Positions 185 through 22,764 of a stretch of DNA of 31,276 bases are shown here, one piece after another. The notes under the pieces are model-generated. The model made no database searches and was not told where the DNA came from. It saw nothing but the letters and a program-made list of their open reading frames with translations. The stretch is taken from IMG/VR virus record IMGVR_UViG_3300020045_005261, positions 1 through 31,276 of that record; one strand, given 5' to 3'. This stretch comes from a virus. Its lineage: Duplodnaviria; Caudoviricetes. Position 1 is the first letter of the stretch, and each line of letters opens with the position of its first letter. The position numbers and the translations under genes are program-made.

Positions 185-340
185 TGAGTTCTCAGCAAGT
201 AGTTAATAAAGTGATATATAAGTCATCACACCAATTGGTAAGACAATAGGTTGCAACTGTGCTAACTACGTGACCCTACTCTTATAGTCCTTAATATATT
301 GGATGAATACGTTATAAGTAATAAGACAAGAGGGTGCTCA
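185..340 (+). ncRNA. Putative structured non-coding RNA
   Basis: Elevated GC. Pairings TGAG185/CTCA337, TTCTC189/GAGGG330, GTAGTTA199/TAACTAC263, GTGAT211/ATCAC225, CTTATAG281/TTATAAG312. Confidence 0.45.
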
Positions 341-386
341 AATTATTTTATTTCATAGTTAAATAATTTAAATTAATAAATGATTT

Positions 387-426
387 ATAACCTGTAGATT
401 TAATTATTTACAGGTTATTTTTATTT
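387..426 (+). terminator. Intrinsic terminator
   Basis: ATAACCTGTAGAT(387-399)/ATTTACAGGTTAT(406-418) stem followed by a T-rich tract. Confidence 0.7.
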
Positions 427-614
427 AAAACCTTTGTTAACCCTTGTGGTTGTTGGGATTGTGAATTCTATGTTAGTCATATCCCCACACATTTACCCAT
501 TAAACTACAACTCCAGTTATACAACTATAAATATAGTTATAGCTTTTACATAAATATTATAACCAATTTAACTGTATATTTCAAATCAATATTAACAACT
601 AAATTATACAAATT

Positions 615-839
615 ATGAACATGATTTTAATAATATTATCAATTTATATACTATTATTTATAATAGGTTTCTATTTATTACGTTATTTAAATGGTTATTA
701 TACAATTAAAAGCTCTGAAATTATTCAAGAAGGCGATATAACTCGAAATGACAACAAAGAAATAATAGGTAAATATTACTATATTAAAACTATTTATAAA
801 AATAATAGAATAATTATTAAAAAGAAGGAATTTATATAA
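615..839 (+). CDS. Small membrane protein, hypothetical
   Basis: 74 aa, hydrophobic N-terminal helix, CAAATTATG leader. Confidence 0.65.
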   Translation: MNMILIILSIYILLFIIGFYLLRYLNGYYTIKSSEIIQEGDITRNDNKEIIGKYYYIKTIYKNNRIIIKKKEFI

Positions 840-922
840 CTAATTCAATTAAGTTATTCTACATATATTTACACACAATTTATTACAAATTTAAACTAAT
901 TACTAACTAAATCATACAAATT

Positions 923-1093
923 ATGAACAATTATTTAAAAATAAGTATAATATTATTCTGTATTTATATGTTATCTTATACATTAATAGATCATTATATT
1001 ATTAAACAAGGTATTCAATGGGGTTATAATTTAACATTAGCAATTATATTTTCATTAATAGTTTCAAAATTAATTACACCTAATAACAACTAA
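923..1093 (+). CDS. Small two-TM hypothetical protein (56 aa, not in ORF track)
   Basis: MNNYLKISIILFCIYMLSY...LTLAIIFSLIVSKL; same CAAATTATG leader. Confidence 0.6.
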   Translation: MNNYLKISIILFCIYMLSYTLIDHYIIKQGIQWGYNLTLAIIFSLIVSKLITPNNN

Positions 1094-1100
1094 ACAAATT

Positions 1101-1181
1101 ATGAAAAACTTTGACAATATTATTACCAATATATCCTTATGGTTATATGGTAAACGACAACCAATGTGGACATTTCAATAA
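1101..1181 (+). CDS. 26-aa micro-ORF
   Basis: MKNFDNIITNISLWLYGKRQPMWTFQ with the consensus leader. Confidence 0.4.
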   Translation: MKNFDNIITNISLWLYGKRQPMWTFQ

Positions 1182-1196
1182 CTAAAATATAATATT

Positions 1197-1391
1197 ATGT
1201 CAACATATTCAAATGAACCACAACAAACTAAATGGGAAATATGGTTTGTAACATCAATAATATTATTTATATCAATGATGCTATGGGGAACTTGTGAAAA
1301 TTCACAAAATTTACCCATAATATACAACGGATTATTATTAGCAACACTTGTTAATTTAGTTTATTGTGTATATGAAGGTTTACAAAAATAA
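1197..1391 (+). CDS. Small two-TM hypothetical protein
   Basis: 64 aa with two hydrophobic segments. Confidence 0.65.
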   Translation: MSTYSNEPQQTKWEIWFVTSIILFISMMLWGTCENSQNLPIIYNGLLLATLVNLVYCVYEGLQK

Positions 1392-1395
1392 TATT

Positions 1396-1479
1396 ATGAA
1401 ACAATTCATAATTAAATCAATAATATCTTTATTTATAATAACAATTGTTATTTATATATTTAAAGATATACTAATATAA
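1396..1479 (+). CDS. 27-aa hydrophobic micro-ORF
   Basis: MKQFIIKSIISLFIITIVIYIFKDILI; starts 4 nt after the previous stop. Confidence 0.4.
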   Translation: MKQFIIKSIISLFIITIVIYIFKDILI

Positions 1480-1697
1480 ATCACTTGCTTGAAAATAAAC
1501 AAATATAAGTTATCTCCATTATTAAAGCCTCTGTAGAAATACAAGTATCTTAATGTAGAAATAGGTAACCTTTAAAAATATTAACTGTACTAGCAGTTGT
1601 GTTTAATATGTAAAGATATTAATGTAAAAGCGAAAAGTACTATACGGAAATTCTTCTTAACTTAATTAATATTCTACTAGATATAGACAAGTGATTT
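1478..1697 (+). ncRNA. Putative structured RNA closed by a 10-bp stem
   Basis: AAATCACTTG(1478-1487)/CAAGTGATTT(1688-1697); internal GTTATCT/AGGTAAC and AACTG/CAGTT stems; no long ORF. Confidence 0.35.
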
Positions 1698-1705
1698 TTT
1701 AATAC

Positions 1706-1951
1706 AAACTACTCACTGAAGATAAATAGTAATACTTTCGAACATGGGGTCAGTAAGGTCTGATATGCAGCTGTTCTCGCAAGGAATAAGCAATCAAAAC
1801 CAAATAGAGGATGCGTTAGCTCTATTAGTATTACAGTTATGCTAAGATGATGTTATTTATTGTAAGATATATTAAAACATTAAAACTCCCTTGATAAGTT
1901 GGGTGAAGGAGTACCAACAATATATTCCACTTAGAAATGGATGAGTAGTTT
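1706..1951 (+). ncRNA. Putative structured RNA with a pseudoknot
   Basis: AAACTACTCA(1706-1715)/TGAGTAGTTT(1942-1951); internal hairpins; ACTCC/GGAGT crossing GTTGG/CCAAC. Confidence 0.45.
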
Positions 1952-1991
1952 TTAAAATAATAATTTTAACTAACAAAATAAATAATAATAT

Positions 1992-2129
1992 ATGATAAGA
2001 AATAAAATAGAAAAATGGATTCTTTCAGAACATCATGTAAAGAATCCAACACTAGTATTTATATTAACATTATTCTCAGCATTTATTATATTGGGATGTA
2101 TGTTATTTTATATTGCATATATGAATTAA
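1992..2129 (+). CDS. 45-aa single-TM protein (not in ORF track)
   Basis: MIRNKIEKWILSEHHVKNPTLVFILTLFSAFIILGCMLFYIAYMN. Confidence 0.55.
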   Translation: MIRNKIEKWILSEHHVKNPTLVFILTLFSAFIILGCMLFYIAYMN

Positions 2130-2196
2130 ACACTGACATAGACAAAAGTCTTTGAAGAAGAGTAGCATATAATAAGTCTTAGTTTGCTACACAACT

Positions 2197-2231
2197 AACC
2201 ACTAAGGTTAATAATTAGTCTTAGTGGTTTT
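2197..2231 (+). terminator. Intrinsic terminator-like hairpin
   Basis: AACCACTAAG(2197-2206)/CTTAGTGGTT(2220-2229) followed by Ts. Confidence 0.55.
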
Positions 2232-2323
2232 ATAATATTGTCCACATTTAATAGTATTTAAGGGACATTAAAGATTAAATATTATATTTTAAAATAAATA
2301 AATTAACTAAATAAATTAAAATT

Positions 2324-2713
2324 ATGAACACAGAAAAATTTACAACAGTAACTTATCAATTAGAAAATGGTACAAAAATTGTACAACCTATTAACAAACA
2401 AGCTTTTGTTGATGAAAAAGGTCGTAAAAGAACAGAAGCACAACTTCATAAATTATTTCAAGACACCGCTTGGGATAAGAGAGCTGTCAAATATACAATT
2501 GATTCTGAAACAGATGATTCATCAACAACAGAAAAAGAAATTCACTTCACTAAAAATGAAAGAAAAGTAGCCAAAAGAGATTATAAAGATTTTCAAAAAT
2601 CTAATCCAAACGGATTTAAACAATCGTTGAAATCTTTTCAAAAACAATTTGTTGATGCAGTAACAAATAATAAAAGAATTAAAATGAATATTACTAATAT
2701 TATTTTACAATAA
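2324..2713 (+). CDS. Hypothetical protein
   Basis: 129 aa, consensus leader, codon usage like the other genes. Confidence 0.8.
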   Translation: MNTEKFTTVTYQLENGTKIVQPINKQAFVDEKGRKRTEAQLHKLFQDTAWDKRAVKYTIDSETDDSSTTEKEIHFTKNERKVAKRDYKDFQKSNPNGFKQSLKSFQKQFVDAVTNNKRIKMNITNIILQ

Positions 2714-2744
2714 AATGATATTTTTATTTATTATTATATTAATA
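2668..2744. repeat. Perfect inverted repeat, copy 2 (partner 1-77)
   Basis: 77/77 identity to the reverse complement of the window start. Confidence 0.95.
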
Positions 2745-2776
2745 ATAATTGCAATAGAAGAAAATTAATAATCTTA

Positions 2777-3016
2777 AATTAAATCACCTAATCCTTAAAA
2801 TGGCTAGGAATAAGTTAACAATATCAATAAATAAGTCAAGAAGCTATTTATAGTGAAATTGTAATTCTTTAGGATATTATACAACAAAATTTACAAGAGT
2901 TAACCTTATTAAAATATTAAAATTTCATTGTTAGTACGTTTATTAACCGAAAAGAATTATTACAATTTTAATATTATAAATAAGTAATTAACGCCACTTG
3001 TTTAGGTGATTTAATT
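2777..3016 (+). ncRNA. Putative structured RNA closed by a 15-bp stem
   Basis: AATTAAATCACCTAA(2777-2791)/TTAGGTGATTTAATT(3002-3016); internal complementary tracts; no long ORF. Confidence 0.35.
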
Positions 3017-3036
3017 AAACTAAAACTAAAACAATT

Positions 3037-3357
3037 ATGACAACAGTTACAACATTACAAAAAGCAGGTTATTCAGGTGTTAAAGTAACTTCTATGACTA
3101 AAGCTATTGAATCTCAAGAAATATTTAAACATTTAAGATTAGTTCAACAAAATGAATTTAGTAAAATTAAGAATAAATATAATAAAGTTGGTTATTTAAC
3201 ACAACCTTATTTTAGTTATCTTTGGAATTTATATTGGAACTTTGTATTAAATGATTTTAGATTTGAAGATAAATCTAAAAATTGGTCAGTTCCAATTAAA
3301 CAAAAGAAAATTAAAGTTGAACACATTGGTTTAATTATGTTGAAAAATTTAAAATAA
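3037..3357 (+). CDS. Hypothetical basic protein
   Basis: 106 aa ORF with ACAATTATG leader. Confidence 0.75.
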   Translation: MTTVTTLQKAGYSGVKVTSMTKAIESQEIFKHLRLVQQNEFSKIKNKYNKVGYLTQPYFSYLWNLYWNFVLNDFRFEDKSKNWSVPIKQKKIKVEHIGLIMLKNLK

Positions 3358-3362
3358 CAATT

Positions 3363-3461
3363 ATGAAAACAATGTGTAAATTACAATTTCCTAATGGTGA
3401 AATAGTTTCAACTCATTTATGGAATCAAATAGATTTAAATAATGCTTTAAAAAATAACTAA
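3363..3461 (+). CDS. 32-aa micro-ORF
   Basis: MKTMCKLQFPNGEIVSTHLWNQIDLNNALKNN; fills the gap, consensus leader. Confidence 0.45.
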   Translation: MKTMCKLQFPNGEIVSTHLWNQIDLNNALKNN

Positions 3462-3472
3462 AAATAACAAAA

Positions 3473-4129
3473 ATGAAAACAAAATTATTACTATTTATCG
3501 CAATAATGTCAATGACTCTGACTTTTGCACAATCAAAACAAGTAGATAAACTATTAAATAATTCTGAAAAAGGAGTTACTACAGTTTATAAAGACGGTAC
3601 AGCTGTTGTAAAGACAGTTTATAATGATGCTAAATCATTATCTCCTAAAATAGAATCTGCTATCAAATCATTAGCAACTGAGCTTAAAACAACTACAAAT
3701 GCTTTGTGGGATATATTAGTAAGACAGCAATTAGTTTGGTCTATTGGATTTTTAATCTTAACATTAACTTCTATATTTAATTGGTATTTATTTTATAAAC
3801 GTAATTTAAATATTAAATTAACAGAAAATGATTTTGTTAAAGGTAAAAAAATATTTAAAGAATCAATTAACAACCCAGATTATTCTAGTTACGCAAGTTT
3901 AAATGATGTTAGAGGTCAAAGATATTTATTTAAAGATGCTACAGAAGAAGAAATTTTAATACCTATAATTAATTCTAATAATATTTGGTTTAAATGGCTA
4001 CACTTAATAATTTGTTTAAGTTTATCATTATTAAGTATTTATCATTTTTCTAATATGTTAACGGGTTTTATAAATCCAGAATTTGGTGCATTAAAAACTA
4101 TTGCAGAAATTGCAATTAAATTAAAATAA
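3473..4129 (+). CDS. Membrane protein with signal peptide
   Basis: MKTKLLLFIAIMSMTLTFA-Q signal peptide plus two internal TM segments. Confidence 0.8.
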   Translation: MKTKLLLFIAIMSMTLTFAQSKQVDKLLNNSEKGVTTVYKDGTAVVKTVYNDAKSLSPKIESAIKSLATELKTTTNALWDILVRQQLVWSIGFLILTLTSIFNWYLFYKRNLNIKLTENDFVKGKKIFKESINNPDYSSYASLNDVRGQRYLFKDATEEEILIPIINSNNIWFKWLHLIICLSLSLLSIYHFSNMLTGFINPEFGALKTIAEIAIKLK

Positions 4130-4145
4130 TTAAAAATTAAAAATT

Positions 4146-4370
4146 ATGGAAACATTTGTAATAATATTAATAGTATTAACAACTATGATTATTTGTTATT
4201 ATATTAACAGATATATTGTAAAAGTTGTTAATAAAACTGATTATAGTTGGGAAGAAGTAAAAACAAATTTATTAATGAGTATATTTATACCAGTATCATT
4301 TGTATATTGGATAATATATATTATTAATATTATACCTTCACTTCCTGAACGACCACCAAAATGGTTGTAA
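4146..4370 (+). CDS. Small two-TM protein
   Basis: 74 aa, two hydrophobic helices. Confidence 0.7.
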   Translation: METFVIILIVLTTMIICYYINRYIVKVVNKTDYSWEEVKTNLLMSIFIPVSFVYWIIYIINIIPSLPERPPKWL

Positions 4371-4382
4371 ACTAATTAAAAT

Positions 4383-4466
4383 ACTAACGTGGTGGAATGC
4401 ATACACGCAAGACTTAAACTCTTGTGATCTTAATAGGTCATGCCAGTTCAAATCTGGTCGTTAGTA
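4383..4466 (+). tRNA. trnL: tRNA-Leu(UAA), class II, no encoded CCA
   Basis: Acceptor ACTAACG/CGTTAGT+A; anticodon arm CAAGA-CTTAAAC-TCTTG; variable arm TGATCT/AGGTCA; T arm GCCAG-TTCAAAT-CTGGT. Confidence 0.9.
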
Positions 4467-4506
4467 CAAACTGTATTTCATAATTGTAGTTTAGTTAGTT
4501 TAGTTG

Positions 4507-4559
4507 ATAAATATGGGTGAAAGAGATGTCAAACAGCTTGAGTAACCCATATTTATTTT
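4507..4559 (+). other. Hairpin with a GAA/AGTA internal loop; terminator-like or 3' end of an sRNA
   Basis: ATAAATATGGGT(4507-4518)/ACCCATATTTAT(4545-4556), then TTT. Confidence 0.55.
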
Positions 4560-4619
4560 AAATAACAAAATTATATTATGAATAATAAAATAACAAATAA
4601 TAACTAATTAATAAAAATT

Positions 4620-5828
4620 ATGGAATATATTAAAAAAGAAGAGTTAATTAAAGGTAAAATTTATACTCATCAAAATGGTAATATTTGTAGATATGATCAA
4701 ATTGTTAATAACTCTATTATTGGTAAACATCTTGGTTATAATAAAAGTGAATTTAGAAAACCACCTAATAATTTAGGTAATTTCAACATTGATGAAATGA
4801 AATTATCAACACCTGAAGAAAAACATTGGTTGGAAATTTGTATAAATGCTGATAAATTTATAGAATATAATAAAGCTATGAAAAGTTTTATTCCTGAATA
4901 TGTTGAATGTATTGTAGGATATTCAGGTATGACAAATATATCTGCAAAAATTGGTAAAATTTATAAAACATCTGAAGAACCAGAATTTTCAATTTATAAA
5001 TGGGATTATTTATTTAAAAATCATTTACATAAATTCAAATCGTCAACAAAAAAAGCTTATGATGCTCAATTTATTGTTAAAGAGCCTGAATTTATATTAC
5101 CTGAGAAATGGTATATTAAAACAAATTTAGATAATTTAACTATTATTTCAAATTGGTTTAATAAAAATAAACAAAATAATATAGATGATTATCATACATT
5201 AAGAAAAGATGGAATAACTCCAGTTTATGAACAATTATGTTTTCCTGGAATTGTTAAATATAGTGTTACATATCATGGTTTACCAAATAATATGTTAGAT
5301 AATACTTATAAAGAAATAACTTTTGAACAATTCAAAAAATATGTTTTAAAAGATGAAACTATTAAAGAAAAAATTATCGAACCATTACCACAATTTAAAG
5401 TAATTGAAACAATTGAAACAATTACTAAAGTTGAAAATAACGAAGGTAATCAATTCTTTATTGGAGATATTGTTAAATCAGATAAAAATGCTATTTATAA
5501 TATTGTAGGATTTAAATATAATATTAATAAAACAGATATTATAGCATTGGTTACAAAATCTCCTTTAATGGGTATTAGTATTAATAAAATTGAACATTAT
5601 ATTGAATCTAAAGTTGAAAAAGTTGTAATTGAAGAAACTTTATTAGAAAAAGCTAAAAGATTGTATCCTATTGGTACTGAATTTAATGCAGCTAGAGGGA
5701 CTAAAAATTATTATAAAGTAAGAAATAATTCTGAATTTAAAGAAATGCCTGATGGTGCAATCTGTATAGAATTGTATGGAAACGGAACTATTTATTATGA
5801 TGGTAATTGGGGAGAAATTATAAAATAA
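4620..5828 (+). CDS. Hypothetical multi-module phage protein
   Basis: 402 aa ORF; no catalytic motif recognised. Confidence 0.85.
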   Translation: MEYIKKEELIKGKIYTHQNGNICRYDQIVNNSIIGKHLGYNKSEFRKPPNNLGNFNIDEMKLSTPEEKHWLEICINADKFIEYNKAMKSFIPEYVECIVGYSGMTNISAKIGKIYKTSEEPEFSIYKWDYLFKNHLHKFKSSTKKAYDAQFIVKEPEFILPEKWYIKTNLDNLTIISNWFNKNKQNNIDDYHTLRKDGITPVYEQLCFPGIVKYSVTYHGLPNNMLDNTYKEITFEQFKKYVLKDETIKEKIIEPLPQFKVIETIETITKVENNEGNQFFIGDIVKSDKNAIYNIVGFKYNINKTDIIALVTKSPLMGISINKIEHYIESKVEKVVIEETLLEKAKRLYPIGTEFNAARGTKNYYKVRNNSEFKEMPDGAICIELYGNGTIYYDGNWGEIIK

Positions 5829-5851
5829 TTAATAACAAATAAATAAAAATT

Positions 5852-6130
5852 ATGAAAACAGATCAAACAAAAGTATTTTTTAAATACTCAGAAAATGGAA
5901 CAATTACAGCAGTTGCTAAAAACATTCAAACAAATGAAGAAGTTGTAACTAGAGAAGTGAAACTTCGTCACAGTGATACACCAAACAAAATTGTTGGTAG
6001 AAAGTATGCATTTAAAAAACTAATGGATCATAGCTTAGTTAATAACTTATTACCTAAATCTGAAATTGGTGCATTATGGAAACTATTTGGTTCCACTTGT
6101 AAACAACCTAATCAAAAATTAGCTTATTAA
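5852..6130 (+). CDS. Hypothetical protein
   Basis: 92 aa, consensus leader. Confidence 0.8.
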   Translation: MKTDQTKVFFKYSENGTITAVAKNIQTNEEVVTREVKLRHSDTPNKIVGRKYAFKKLMDHSLVNNLLPKSEIGALWKLFGSTCKQPNQKLAY

Positions 6131-6132
6131 TT

Positions 6133-6378
6133 ATGAAAGTTTACAAATATTATACAAAAGATGGTCATTTAATGAAACAAGGTGAAATTATGTATAGAAT
6201 TTGTGATAGTTCAGGTAAAAAATTTGATAAACCTGAAAAAATAAATTTTAATTATAATACAGGTTATAATCATTTATGGATTTCAAATGATAATCAAAAA
6301 TGTCAACCTCATTTAAATCCATATCACCCTAATCATTTACACTTTTATAATTACGATAATGCATTAAAACATATCTGA
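6133..6378 (+). CDS. Hypothetical protein
   Basis: 81 aa, tightly packed with neighbours. Confidence 0.7.
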   Translation: MKVYKYYTKDGHLMKQGEIMYRICDSSGKKFDKPEKINFNYNTGYNHLWISNDNQKCQPHLNPYHPNHLHFYNYDNALKHI

Positions 6379-21953: not shown

Positions 21954-22764
21954 ATGAAAATAAATAATATCACTTTGGGTACAGATCCAGAATTATTCTT
22001 AGCAAAAGACAATAAAATTATTTCAGCAATTGGTAAAATTGGGGGTTCTAAATCGGAACCCCAACCGATTTCAGATGATGGTCATTTTATTCAAGAAGAT
22101 AATGTTACTATTGAATATAATATCCCACCTTGTAAAAATGTAGAAGATTGGGTATTTCATCATAATTTTGTTAAAGATTATTTAGAAGTATTAGTTTCTG
22201 GAATGGGTTGTACATTAGCAATTCAACCTATTGCTACATTAGAAGATTCTGAGTTAGACAACGATATAGCGCGTCTTGCGGGTTGTACACCTGATTTCGA
22301 TGTATGGAATGAATGTATTAATGAACCAGTAGACTTATCTATTACCAACAAGAGAAGCAGGGGGTCATATTTCTGTGGGTTGGGATGATTTTACACAAGA
22401 ACAACAGCTAGATATGATTAAAGCAATGGATGCTACTTTAGGTTTAGAATCTGTATTATTAGATGATGATACAGAACGTAAAAAACTTTATGGTAAAGCA
22501 GGTTGTTTTCGCTTCACCGCTTTTGGAATTGAATATAGAAGTTTATCTAATTTCTGGATTAAATCTGATGAATCTTTGCAATGGGCTTGGAAAACTACAA
22601 TGAAAGCAATTGATTTAGTTAATTCTGATAAAATTGAAGAAGTTAAAGAGTTAGGTGGTTATATTGTAGAAGCAATTAATACTAATAATAAAGAATTAGC
22701 TCAAGAGTTATTAAATAAAATTGATATAATTGTTGATAATAAAATAAAAGTAACAAATGAATAA
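21954..22764 (+). pseudogene. phiEco32-like COOH-NH2 ligase type 2, split by a frameshift near 22357
   Basis: Frame A: GTDPELF, QEDNV..EYN, GCTPDF. Frame B: AGGHISVG, RKKLYGKAG.FR, IEYRSLSNFW. Joined length about 270 aa. Confidence 0.85.

Follow-up and report, generated by a model that had tools for sequence, protein, structure and literature searches.

A conserved module behind a tRNA-shaped element is a predicted anti-start-codon small RNA of Crassvirales-like phages

The DNA stretch analysed here, referred to as the window, is a 31,276-nucleotide (nt) virus contig (IMG/VR record IMGVR_UViG_3300020045_005261; 23% guanine plus cytosine (GC), about 31% complete) that carries, directly behind a transfer RNA (tRNA)-shaped element, a module at positions 4467–4560. 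The module comprises a hairpin, P1, with the loop UUCAUAAU, followed by a UUAGUU repeat, a stem, P2, and a U tract. Comparison with related sequences supports the conclusion that it is a real, conserved RNA module, while its regulatory function is predicted from models of folding and pairing. The interpretation that we favor, with slightly better than even confidence, is that 4467–4560 is a base-pairing small RNA (sRNA) of the phage, derived from an early transcript, which probably damps about a dozen of the phage's own first-block genes together, i.e., genes that precede PolA. Pairing with these genes is likely because the conserved hairpin loop mirrors their start-codon region.

P1 starts directly behind the tRNA end on the plus strand, with arms at 4468–4475 and 4485–4492 (span 4468–4492) that form eight base pairs, two of them G-U. 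Its loop, 8 or 9 nt long depending on the phage, displays the seed (U)UUCAUAAU at 4476–4484 (plus strand), which is invariant in 19/19 copies and antisense to AUUAUGAA(A) at first-block starts. Across the copies, 140/152 P1 pairs can form, compared with 101.0 ± 4.8 when the arms are swapped between phages, and the covariation score is 0.607, compared with 0.194 for shuffled (0/500) and at most 0.18 for slid arms. The UUAGUU repeats at 4491–4506 (plus strand) are antisense to an AACUAA box located 10–25 nt upstream of first-block start codons, and are a candidate second pairing region or protein site; UUAGUU is found in 18/19 copies, with small hairpins inserted ahead of it in the relatives L377, L401 and L405. 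P2 and the U tract (4507–4560, plus strand; z −4.7) are terminator-like and contain an internal GUGAA (4517–4521)/AGUARC (4541–4546) motif that is present in 17/19 copies. The lower-stem pairs of P2 number 117/119, compared with 88.7 ± 3.3 for swapped arms, four of the seven pairs having been required in selection, and the apical insert is variable (3–89 nt). This insert appears exchangeable in L373 (7989–8088), L407 (7528–7627), L375, L385, L405 and L432, where two types occur, one branched, 89 nt long and containing a T-loop-like sequence, the other a 29–30-nt stem with a CGAAAU-type loop. Behind P2, a sense copy of the seed, UAUUAUGAAU, opens a nine-codon mini open reading frame (ORF) with its ATG at 4578 (4570–4607, plus strand); TTATGAA follows P2 in 16/19 loci and mostly opens a mini-ORF there. 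Folding predicts that the unpaired probability of the seed drops from 0.64 to 0.10 once the RNA extends to 4600, and the downstream copy can thereby mask the seed in modeled read-through RNA.

The module is present in the window and 18 distinct relatives, always on the PolA strand and upstream of PolA. These loci derive from a search with a PolA alignment, which returned 129 loci; a search with a single PolA protein yielded none. Among 160 distinct T-loop sites, TTCATA follows at 20, compared with 2 and 5 for permuted motifs. Eighteen of the 20, the window included, are the module; two unrelated minus-strand sites were dropped and L375 was added, which gives 19. The first six letters of the seed were a selection criterion in this T-loop search and the last two were not. 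A seed-blind search based on the 3' stem returned 17 sites, and UUCAUAAU lies upstream in 17/17. With respect to the 44 distinct loci that extend at least 5.5 kb upstream of PolA, the module occurs in 19/27 with a PolA identity of at least 42% and in 0/17 below that value, two of the 19 sharing one copy. Two further copies, L551 and L600, emerged when 113 distinct loci were scanned for the motif, and each of three complete genomes contains one strong model match; model R1 covered just nine P2 pairs, with P1 left out.

The element in front of the module (4383–4466, plus strand) has the shape of tRNA-Leu(UAA) according to ARAGORN and the Rfam tRNA model (51.2 bits), and displays features of a decoding tRNA-Leu, i.e., a cloverleaf, A73 and a long variable arm. 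No CCA is encoded, the discriminator A4466 being followed by CAA. Canonical tRNAs have GG in the D-loop; a single G is present in the window and in L377. A tRNA shape without CCA sits 8–11 nt ahead of the seed in 19/19 loci. ARAGORN passes six of the 19 shapes (Leu, Leu, Pro, Val, Glu and Glu), or 16 when its cut-off is relaxed; three shapes are only 59–60 nt long with the anticodon arm missing. The T arm and acceptor stem are retained across the shapes, a count that is generous because the script chose the best 5' strand. BLAST similarity between the window and L373 stops across the tRNA and restarts exactly at 4466, the discriminator. These comparisons indicate that the tRNA shape is exchangeable between relatives and often degenerate, and we infer that it serves as a processing or stability scaffold. 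The discriminator is followed by C in 18/19 loci and directly adjoined by P1, which bears on whether the trailer is cut off. None of the 19 loci has a TAnnTTTG promoter box, the host type, less than 60 nt away from the seed.

The starting point was an original prediction, made from the letters of the window, that the tract at 4476–4506 is antisense to the consensus translation-initiation region. Its reverse complement, the matches to the leaders of the genes at 1101, 923, 3037 and 3363, the minus-strand ORF of only MKYSLY and a stop, and the adjoining 12-base-pair hairpin (4507–4556) are all found in the sequence as described. The tract mirrors first-block leaders and not a genome-wide consensus, because a weight matrix built on the 12 starts below 6 kb ranks it first among 31,246 minus-strand scoring windows (10.7 bits, the runner-up scoring 9.2), and it falls outside the top 12 with a matrix built on all 48 starts. 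The antisense core is located inside a hairpin loop, and part of the 31-nt leader match is the 3' arm of the same hairpin. The further proposal of a multi-target antisense sRNA is borne out in so far as the comparisons point to an anti-start-codon RNA that lies behind a tRNA, is structured and conserved, and has several predicted targets; the TTTCAT core is kept in the 18 relatives.

Cofolding assigns the predicted targets predominantly to small first-block genes. Against 12 first-block start regions, 4467–4506 gives a median of −14.0 kcal/mol, compared with −7.3 ± 1.7 for 300 dinucleotide shuffles, none of which is as good. Cofold medians in the window are −14.1 kcal/mol for the 12 first-block starts, −4.6 for 36 later genes, −3.4 for 250 non-start ATGs and −5.1 for 98 non-start TTATG sites. 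The predicted target starts at 585–6142 (plus strand; −10.8 to −21.4 kcal/mol) are those of the genes at 615, 923, 1101, 2324, 3037, 3363, 3473, 4146, 4620, 5852 and 6133, and cofolding adds 16842, 9689 and 28394 beyond this region; Pfam and PHROGs provide a name for hardly any of these genes. In the three complete relatives, 43/379 ORFs reach −10 kcal/mol or better in a scan that used first-ATG starts and missed ORFs crossing piece borders; 33 of the 43 belong to the block of small genes that surrounds the module, and five are on the opposite strand. Each RNA also fits the starts of its own phage best (own-versus-other residual −0.64 kcal/mol, negative for 18/19, 0/20,000 permutations), and control windows, ten per phage, give a residual of +0.12 (p 0.88).

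The primase and amidoligase of the window find their nearest match in Cellulophaga phage phi14:2 (41% and 39%), and the gene order parallels the left arm of that phage, i.e., small unknown genes, DNA polymerase, Sak4, primase, cyclotransferase, ligases, RusA and exonuclease. By these similarities the window belongs to a Crassvirales-like (crAss-like, phi14:2-like) phage, the host of which is presumably a member of the Bacteroidota, and synteny with phi14:2 suggests that the first-block genes are early. In phi14:2 a virion polymerase reads the early genes, and two intergenic RNAs of the left region, described as being of unknown function, stay while early messenger RNAs (mRNAs) drop (bioRxiv 10.1101/2020.03.07.982082).

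In the mechanism that we propose, the module would be transcribed along with the early block and transcription would terminate at P2. RNase P would cleave at 4383, and a second, 3' cleavage at 4466 may or may not follow, leaving a product of about 95 nt if freed from the tRNA shape and of about 180 nt if still joined; excision of the tRNA-shaped element by host tRNA-processing enzymes would give the sRNA a defined 5' end. Pairing would begin at the loop, with UUCAUAAU on AUUAUGAA across the start codon, and extend through the U-rich 3' arm of P1 and UUAGUU into the AACUAA box and A-rich leader. The leader region that Bacteroidota ribosomes use instead of a Shine-Dalgarno site, with A at −3, −6 and −11 to −15 (PMC7366714), would become covered. 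In read-through RNA the seed would be hidden by the sense copy at 4570–4582. As the stable RNA builds up, translation of the first-block genes would fall, a repressive sign that we infer.

The closest host counterpart is Rfp18 of Flavobacterium psychrophilum, which is described as an expressed RNA of about 97 nt conserved in the genus, with a UUCAUAAU core that places UUCAU in a predicted loop, a U/G tract UUGGUUGGUU, a terminator and a single pairing region predicted for several mRNAs (PMC9723704). The window module shares the UUCAUAAU core in a hairpin loop, the U/G tract and the terminator. Rfp18 differs in being host-encoded and in having a 5' GGGGUGG hairpin and a longer P1, with no tRNA ahead and no GUGAA/AGUA stem; the module lacks such a 5' hairpin and its own promoter, and has the tRNA shape in their place. 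The Bacteroides sRNAs FopS (RF04319) and GibS (RF04182) are multi-target RNAs with a UUUCAUA-core seed antisense to start codons and followed by an intrinsic terminator, and they act as repressors by pairing close to the start codon (PMC11697453, PMC7366714). The module has the UUUCAUA core and a downstream terminator as well. A FopS sequence has been reported in one phage, and FopS differs in its single-stranded 5'-end seed, sigma-ABfr promoter, 12–15 copies and susC target (PMC11697453); neither promoter nor multiple copies are seen for the module, with no TAnnTTTG within 60 nt and one strong match per complete genome. The FopS model has no match in the window at E ≤ 10 (true copies score 72–79 bits), nor does the GibS model at E ≤ 5 and E ≤ 10 (true copy, 137 bits). 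By analogy, the module is predicted to work like FopS and GibS and, most closely, Rfp18.

A model built on the phage copies matches 10/121 host-family genomes, weakly at 31–40 bits, and four of the 11 matches are plain tRNA ends, a result as compatible with convergence on one target as with descent shared with the Rfp18 type; the model led to host sRNA-like loci. The seed-plus-tract motif, seed-N1-14-UURGUURGUU, occurs in 111/151 Capnocytophaga-family genomes (taken as Flavobacteriaceae), compared with 22 for the reversed pattern. Thirty host motif loci comprise 16 that are sRNA-like (terminator-ended, no ORF), 10 gene starts and four unclear cases, and 0/30 follow a tRNA. The Rfp18-like loci have a TAnnTTTG promoter box and no Rfam match. 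A second widespread sRNA-like sequence of the host family, distinct from Rfp18, shares the seed and has a conserved terminator (L634, L649, L665 and L670).

Two phage-borne RNA types provide further comparisons. In theta ribozymes, a nested pseudoknot of hepatitis delta virus (HDV)-like topology lies directly behind the tRNA. Unlike this, the first stem of the module closes an 8–9-nt loop, and neither a ribozyme nor the three-stem model of C4 RNA was matched in Rfam scans. Theta ribozymes are functional RNAs that directly adjoin the 3' ends of tRNAs in phages, those of Bacteroidota among them; they self-cleave through the HDV-like fold and have a proposed role in tRNA maturation (PMC10879173). 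The module has a simple hairpin in this place, and here the tRNA is the disposable part. C4 RNA of phages P1 and P7 is an antisense RNA that host RNase P matures and whose exposed loops pair at a ribosome-binding region of phage mRNA; its seeds are within the processed RNA and serve one immunity operon of temperate phages (PMC5320573), whereas the seed of the module follows a tRNA shape that can be exchanged and is complementary to about a dozen genes. By analogy, C4 is a phage precedent for an RNase P-matured loop antisense RNA, and theta ribozymes are one for functional tRNA trailers.

Several observations weigh against an sRNA that damps the phage's own early genes. Eight of the 27 close relatives are without the module within the DNA examined. 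P1 of the window is by itself not significantly stable (−3.6 kcal/mol, z −0.63), so that the case for this hairpin rests on covariation, and cofolding cannot represent pairing begun at a loop. The planned test, T at −4 versus the base at seed+8, was not significant (p 0.12). C at −4 is found in 13/41 ATTATG leaders where the seed is followed by G and in 0/78 where it is followed by U; this pattern was noticed after the fact, and the counts are not independent because the phages are related by descent. The early status of the first-block genes is deduced from synteny with phi14:2. Deletion of Rfp18 lowered, and did not raise, two predicted protease target mRNAs (PMC9723704), which makes the repressive sign of the module less certain. 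Finally, many host-family genomes also carry the bipartite seed-plus-tract motif, in part at real gene starts, so that host mRNAs are equally good substrates.

This last point leads to the alternative that the selected targets of the same RNA are host mRNAs, i.e., that the module is an Rfp18/FopS-class RNA in phage form, with which the phage adjusts envelope proteins (TonB-dependent receptors, secreted proteins) to take over the host or to exclude superinfecting phages, and that its match to phage genes reflects shared strong Bacteroidota start signals. We regard this as rather unlikely. The 111 genomes with the motif are in its favor, one of the 10 real gene starts belongs to a TonB-dependent receptor, phage, Rfp18-like and FopS copies align across seed and tract, and FopS represses susC (PMC11697453); however, each phage RNA suits its own genes better than those of other phages, and the strong matches are concentrated in the phage's own first block. 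Less probable still is a switch in cis, in which seed and tract fold back onto the start behind P2 in read-through RNA and thereby control whether the following genes are translated or transcription ends, with no action in trans. The frequency of TTATGAA behind P2 (16/19) and the predicted loss of seed accessibility in RNA reaching 4600 speak for such a switch, but the start behind P2 mostly opens a mini-ORF, is lost in L373, L407 and L452 with the seed retained, does not pair with the ninth base of the seed in four phages (that of the window, L401, L409 and L432), and reaches a binding energy of −8.9 kcal/mol, compared with −14.1 for first-block starts; the covariation of P1, moreover, selects for an exposed loop. 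Both the host targets and the switch in cis can coexist with damping of first-block genes.

We consider it improbable, at about the level of the switch in cis or marginally below, that the module is a protein ligand, either as a decoy for an anticodon nuclease or tRNA enzyme through a loop resembling the Met anticodon, or through UUAGUU titrating an RbpB-like RNA-recognition motif protein or sponging host regulators. The loop, with U-CAU-AA, is in our view similar to a tRNA-Met anticodon loop, and the conserved GAA/AGUA motif of P2 presumably resembles a protein site of the loop-E type. FopS is bound by RbpB, as are AU-rich sequences (PMC11697453). Against a protein ligand, the loop has 8 or 9 nt by phage rather than 7, position 32 is always U, and arm polarity and flanks track the leaders. 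Chance in a 23% GC genome, or a relic of an inverted gene start, which the original prediction had named as a way to fail, is very improbable: a U-rich strand would pair with any A-rich leader, and the tract is no top match with the all-gene matrix, but conservation contradicts it, with the seed at 17/17 seed-blind sites and compensatory stems, 0/300 shuffles match, and no minus-strand ORF is conserved (3–57 codons, at most nine in 14/19).

Returning to the sRNA with first-block targets, we advance a broader view more tentatively, at somewhat under even confidence, namely that an environmental crAss-like clade captured the anti-start-codon sRNA design of the Bacteroidota, using the tRNA as a mere processing handle, and turned it into an RNA timer for the switch from early to middle expression. 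The freed RNA would turn off a dozen early genes at once via a shared start-codon tag, in phages whose early genes an injected polymerase reads. If true, many odd 'tRNA genes' of Crassvirales would be scaffolds and not decoders; the module would be a candidate answer to the question of what lowers the output of early genes that the virion polymerase transcribes, and to why these phages hold degenerate tRNAs. FopS, GibS, Rfp18 and the phage RNAs would follow one Bacteroidota logic, with an anti-AUGAA seed replacing an anti-Shine-Dalgarno seed, and a tRNA-released, retargetable loop RNA would serve as a knock-down scaffold for Bacteroidota. The literature searched, which covered few subscription papers and no bioRxiv supplements, does not describe any phage with an anti-start-codon RNA tethered to a tRNA; the module is a phage variant of the FopS/Rfp18 kind.

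Beyond the relatives, the exact 23-nt tract had no match in viral contigs, and blastn of the locus against cultured phages gave tRNA-Leu or chance matches only. The module model made no convincing match in phi14:2, crAss001, Fpv3, cr108_1 or the L068 record (best E 0.03), phi14:2 has no T-loop plus seed in 1–16 kb, and in four DNA sequencing runs only pieces of relatives were found. A generic T-loop-plus-seed scan of viral contigs gave 23/119 sites preceded by a tRNA (19 distinct) from 33/64 parts, compared with 14/120 (11 distinct) from 59/64 parts for a permuted motif, a roughly threefold but noisy difference. In cellular genomes, scanned without such a control, 56/120 sites from many phyla are tRNA-preceded, which is a lead only. 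Further tRNAs that have UUUCAUAAUU behind them, and then a U-rich tract and a hairpin resembling a terminator, are seen in Bacteroidales genomes (L240, L290, L304, L320 and L338) and in viral contigs (L042, L046, L053, L068 and L076). These scans, which had no phylum-matched control, suggest that tRNA-trailer versions exist in hosts and in unrelated phages.

The original prediction had also taken similar tracts at 351 and 2923 for parts of a system. Both tracts exist, and neither is conserved: the core at 2923 is altered or missing in 6/6 aligned relatives, and the hairpin at 351 was not seen in 4/4. Loop-displayed UUCAU is not enriched elsewhere upstream of PolA (29/118, compared with 21–34 for five permuted motifs). 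The window contains one element, not three. The region 340–430 (plus strand; z −5.6) holds a second hairpin with a UUUCAUAG loop and a strong terminator-like hairpin, seen in the window only, and its membership is doubtful. Ahead of these hairpins, a GC-richer folded segment (184–335) is common to the window and L395 (2650–2830), where a transfer-messenger RNA comes next.

Other features of the window are recorded as side observations. A COOH.NH2 ligase, single in phi14:2, is split at 21954–22764 over two ORFs (144 and 116–129 amino acids) that match the two halves of phrog_3815. An 80-nt inverted repeat at the contig end (1–80/2665–2744; 99% complementary) may be an assembly artefact or the edge of an invertible segment. 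The region 1470–1960 is GC-richer, without ORF or Rfam match, and retains short blocks in relatives (1472–1506, 1572–1625 and 1670–1730); its position resembles that of the persistent phi14:2 intergenic RNAs. A conserved non-coding block at 2765–3010, near-identical at its ends (about 2785–2812 and 2990–3010) in six relatives and variable in the middle, is a candidate structured RNA or origin.
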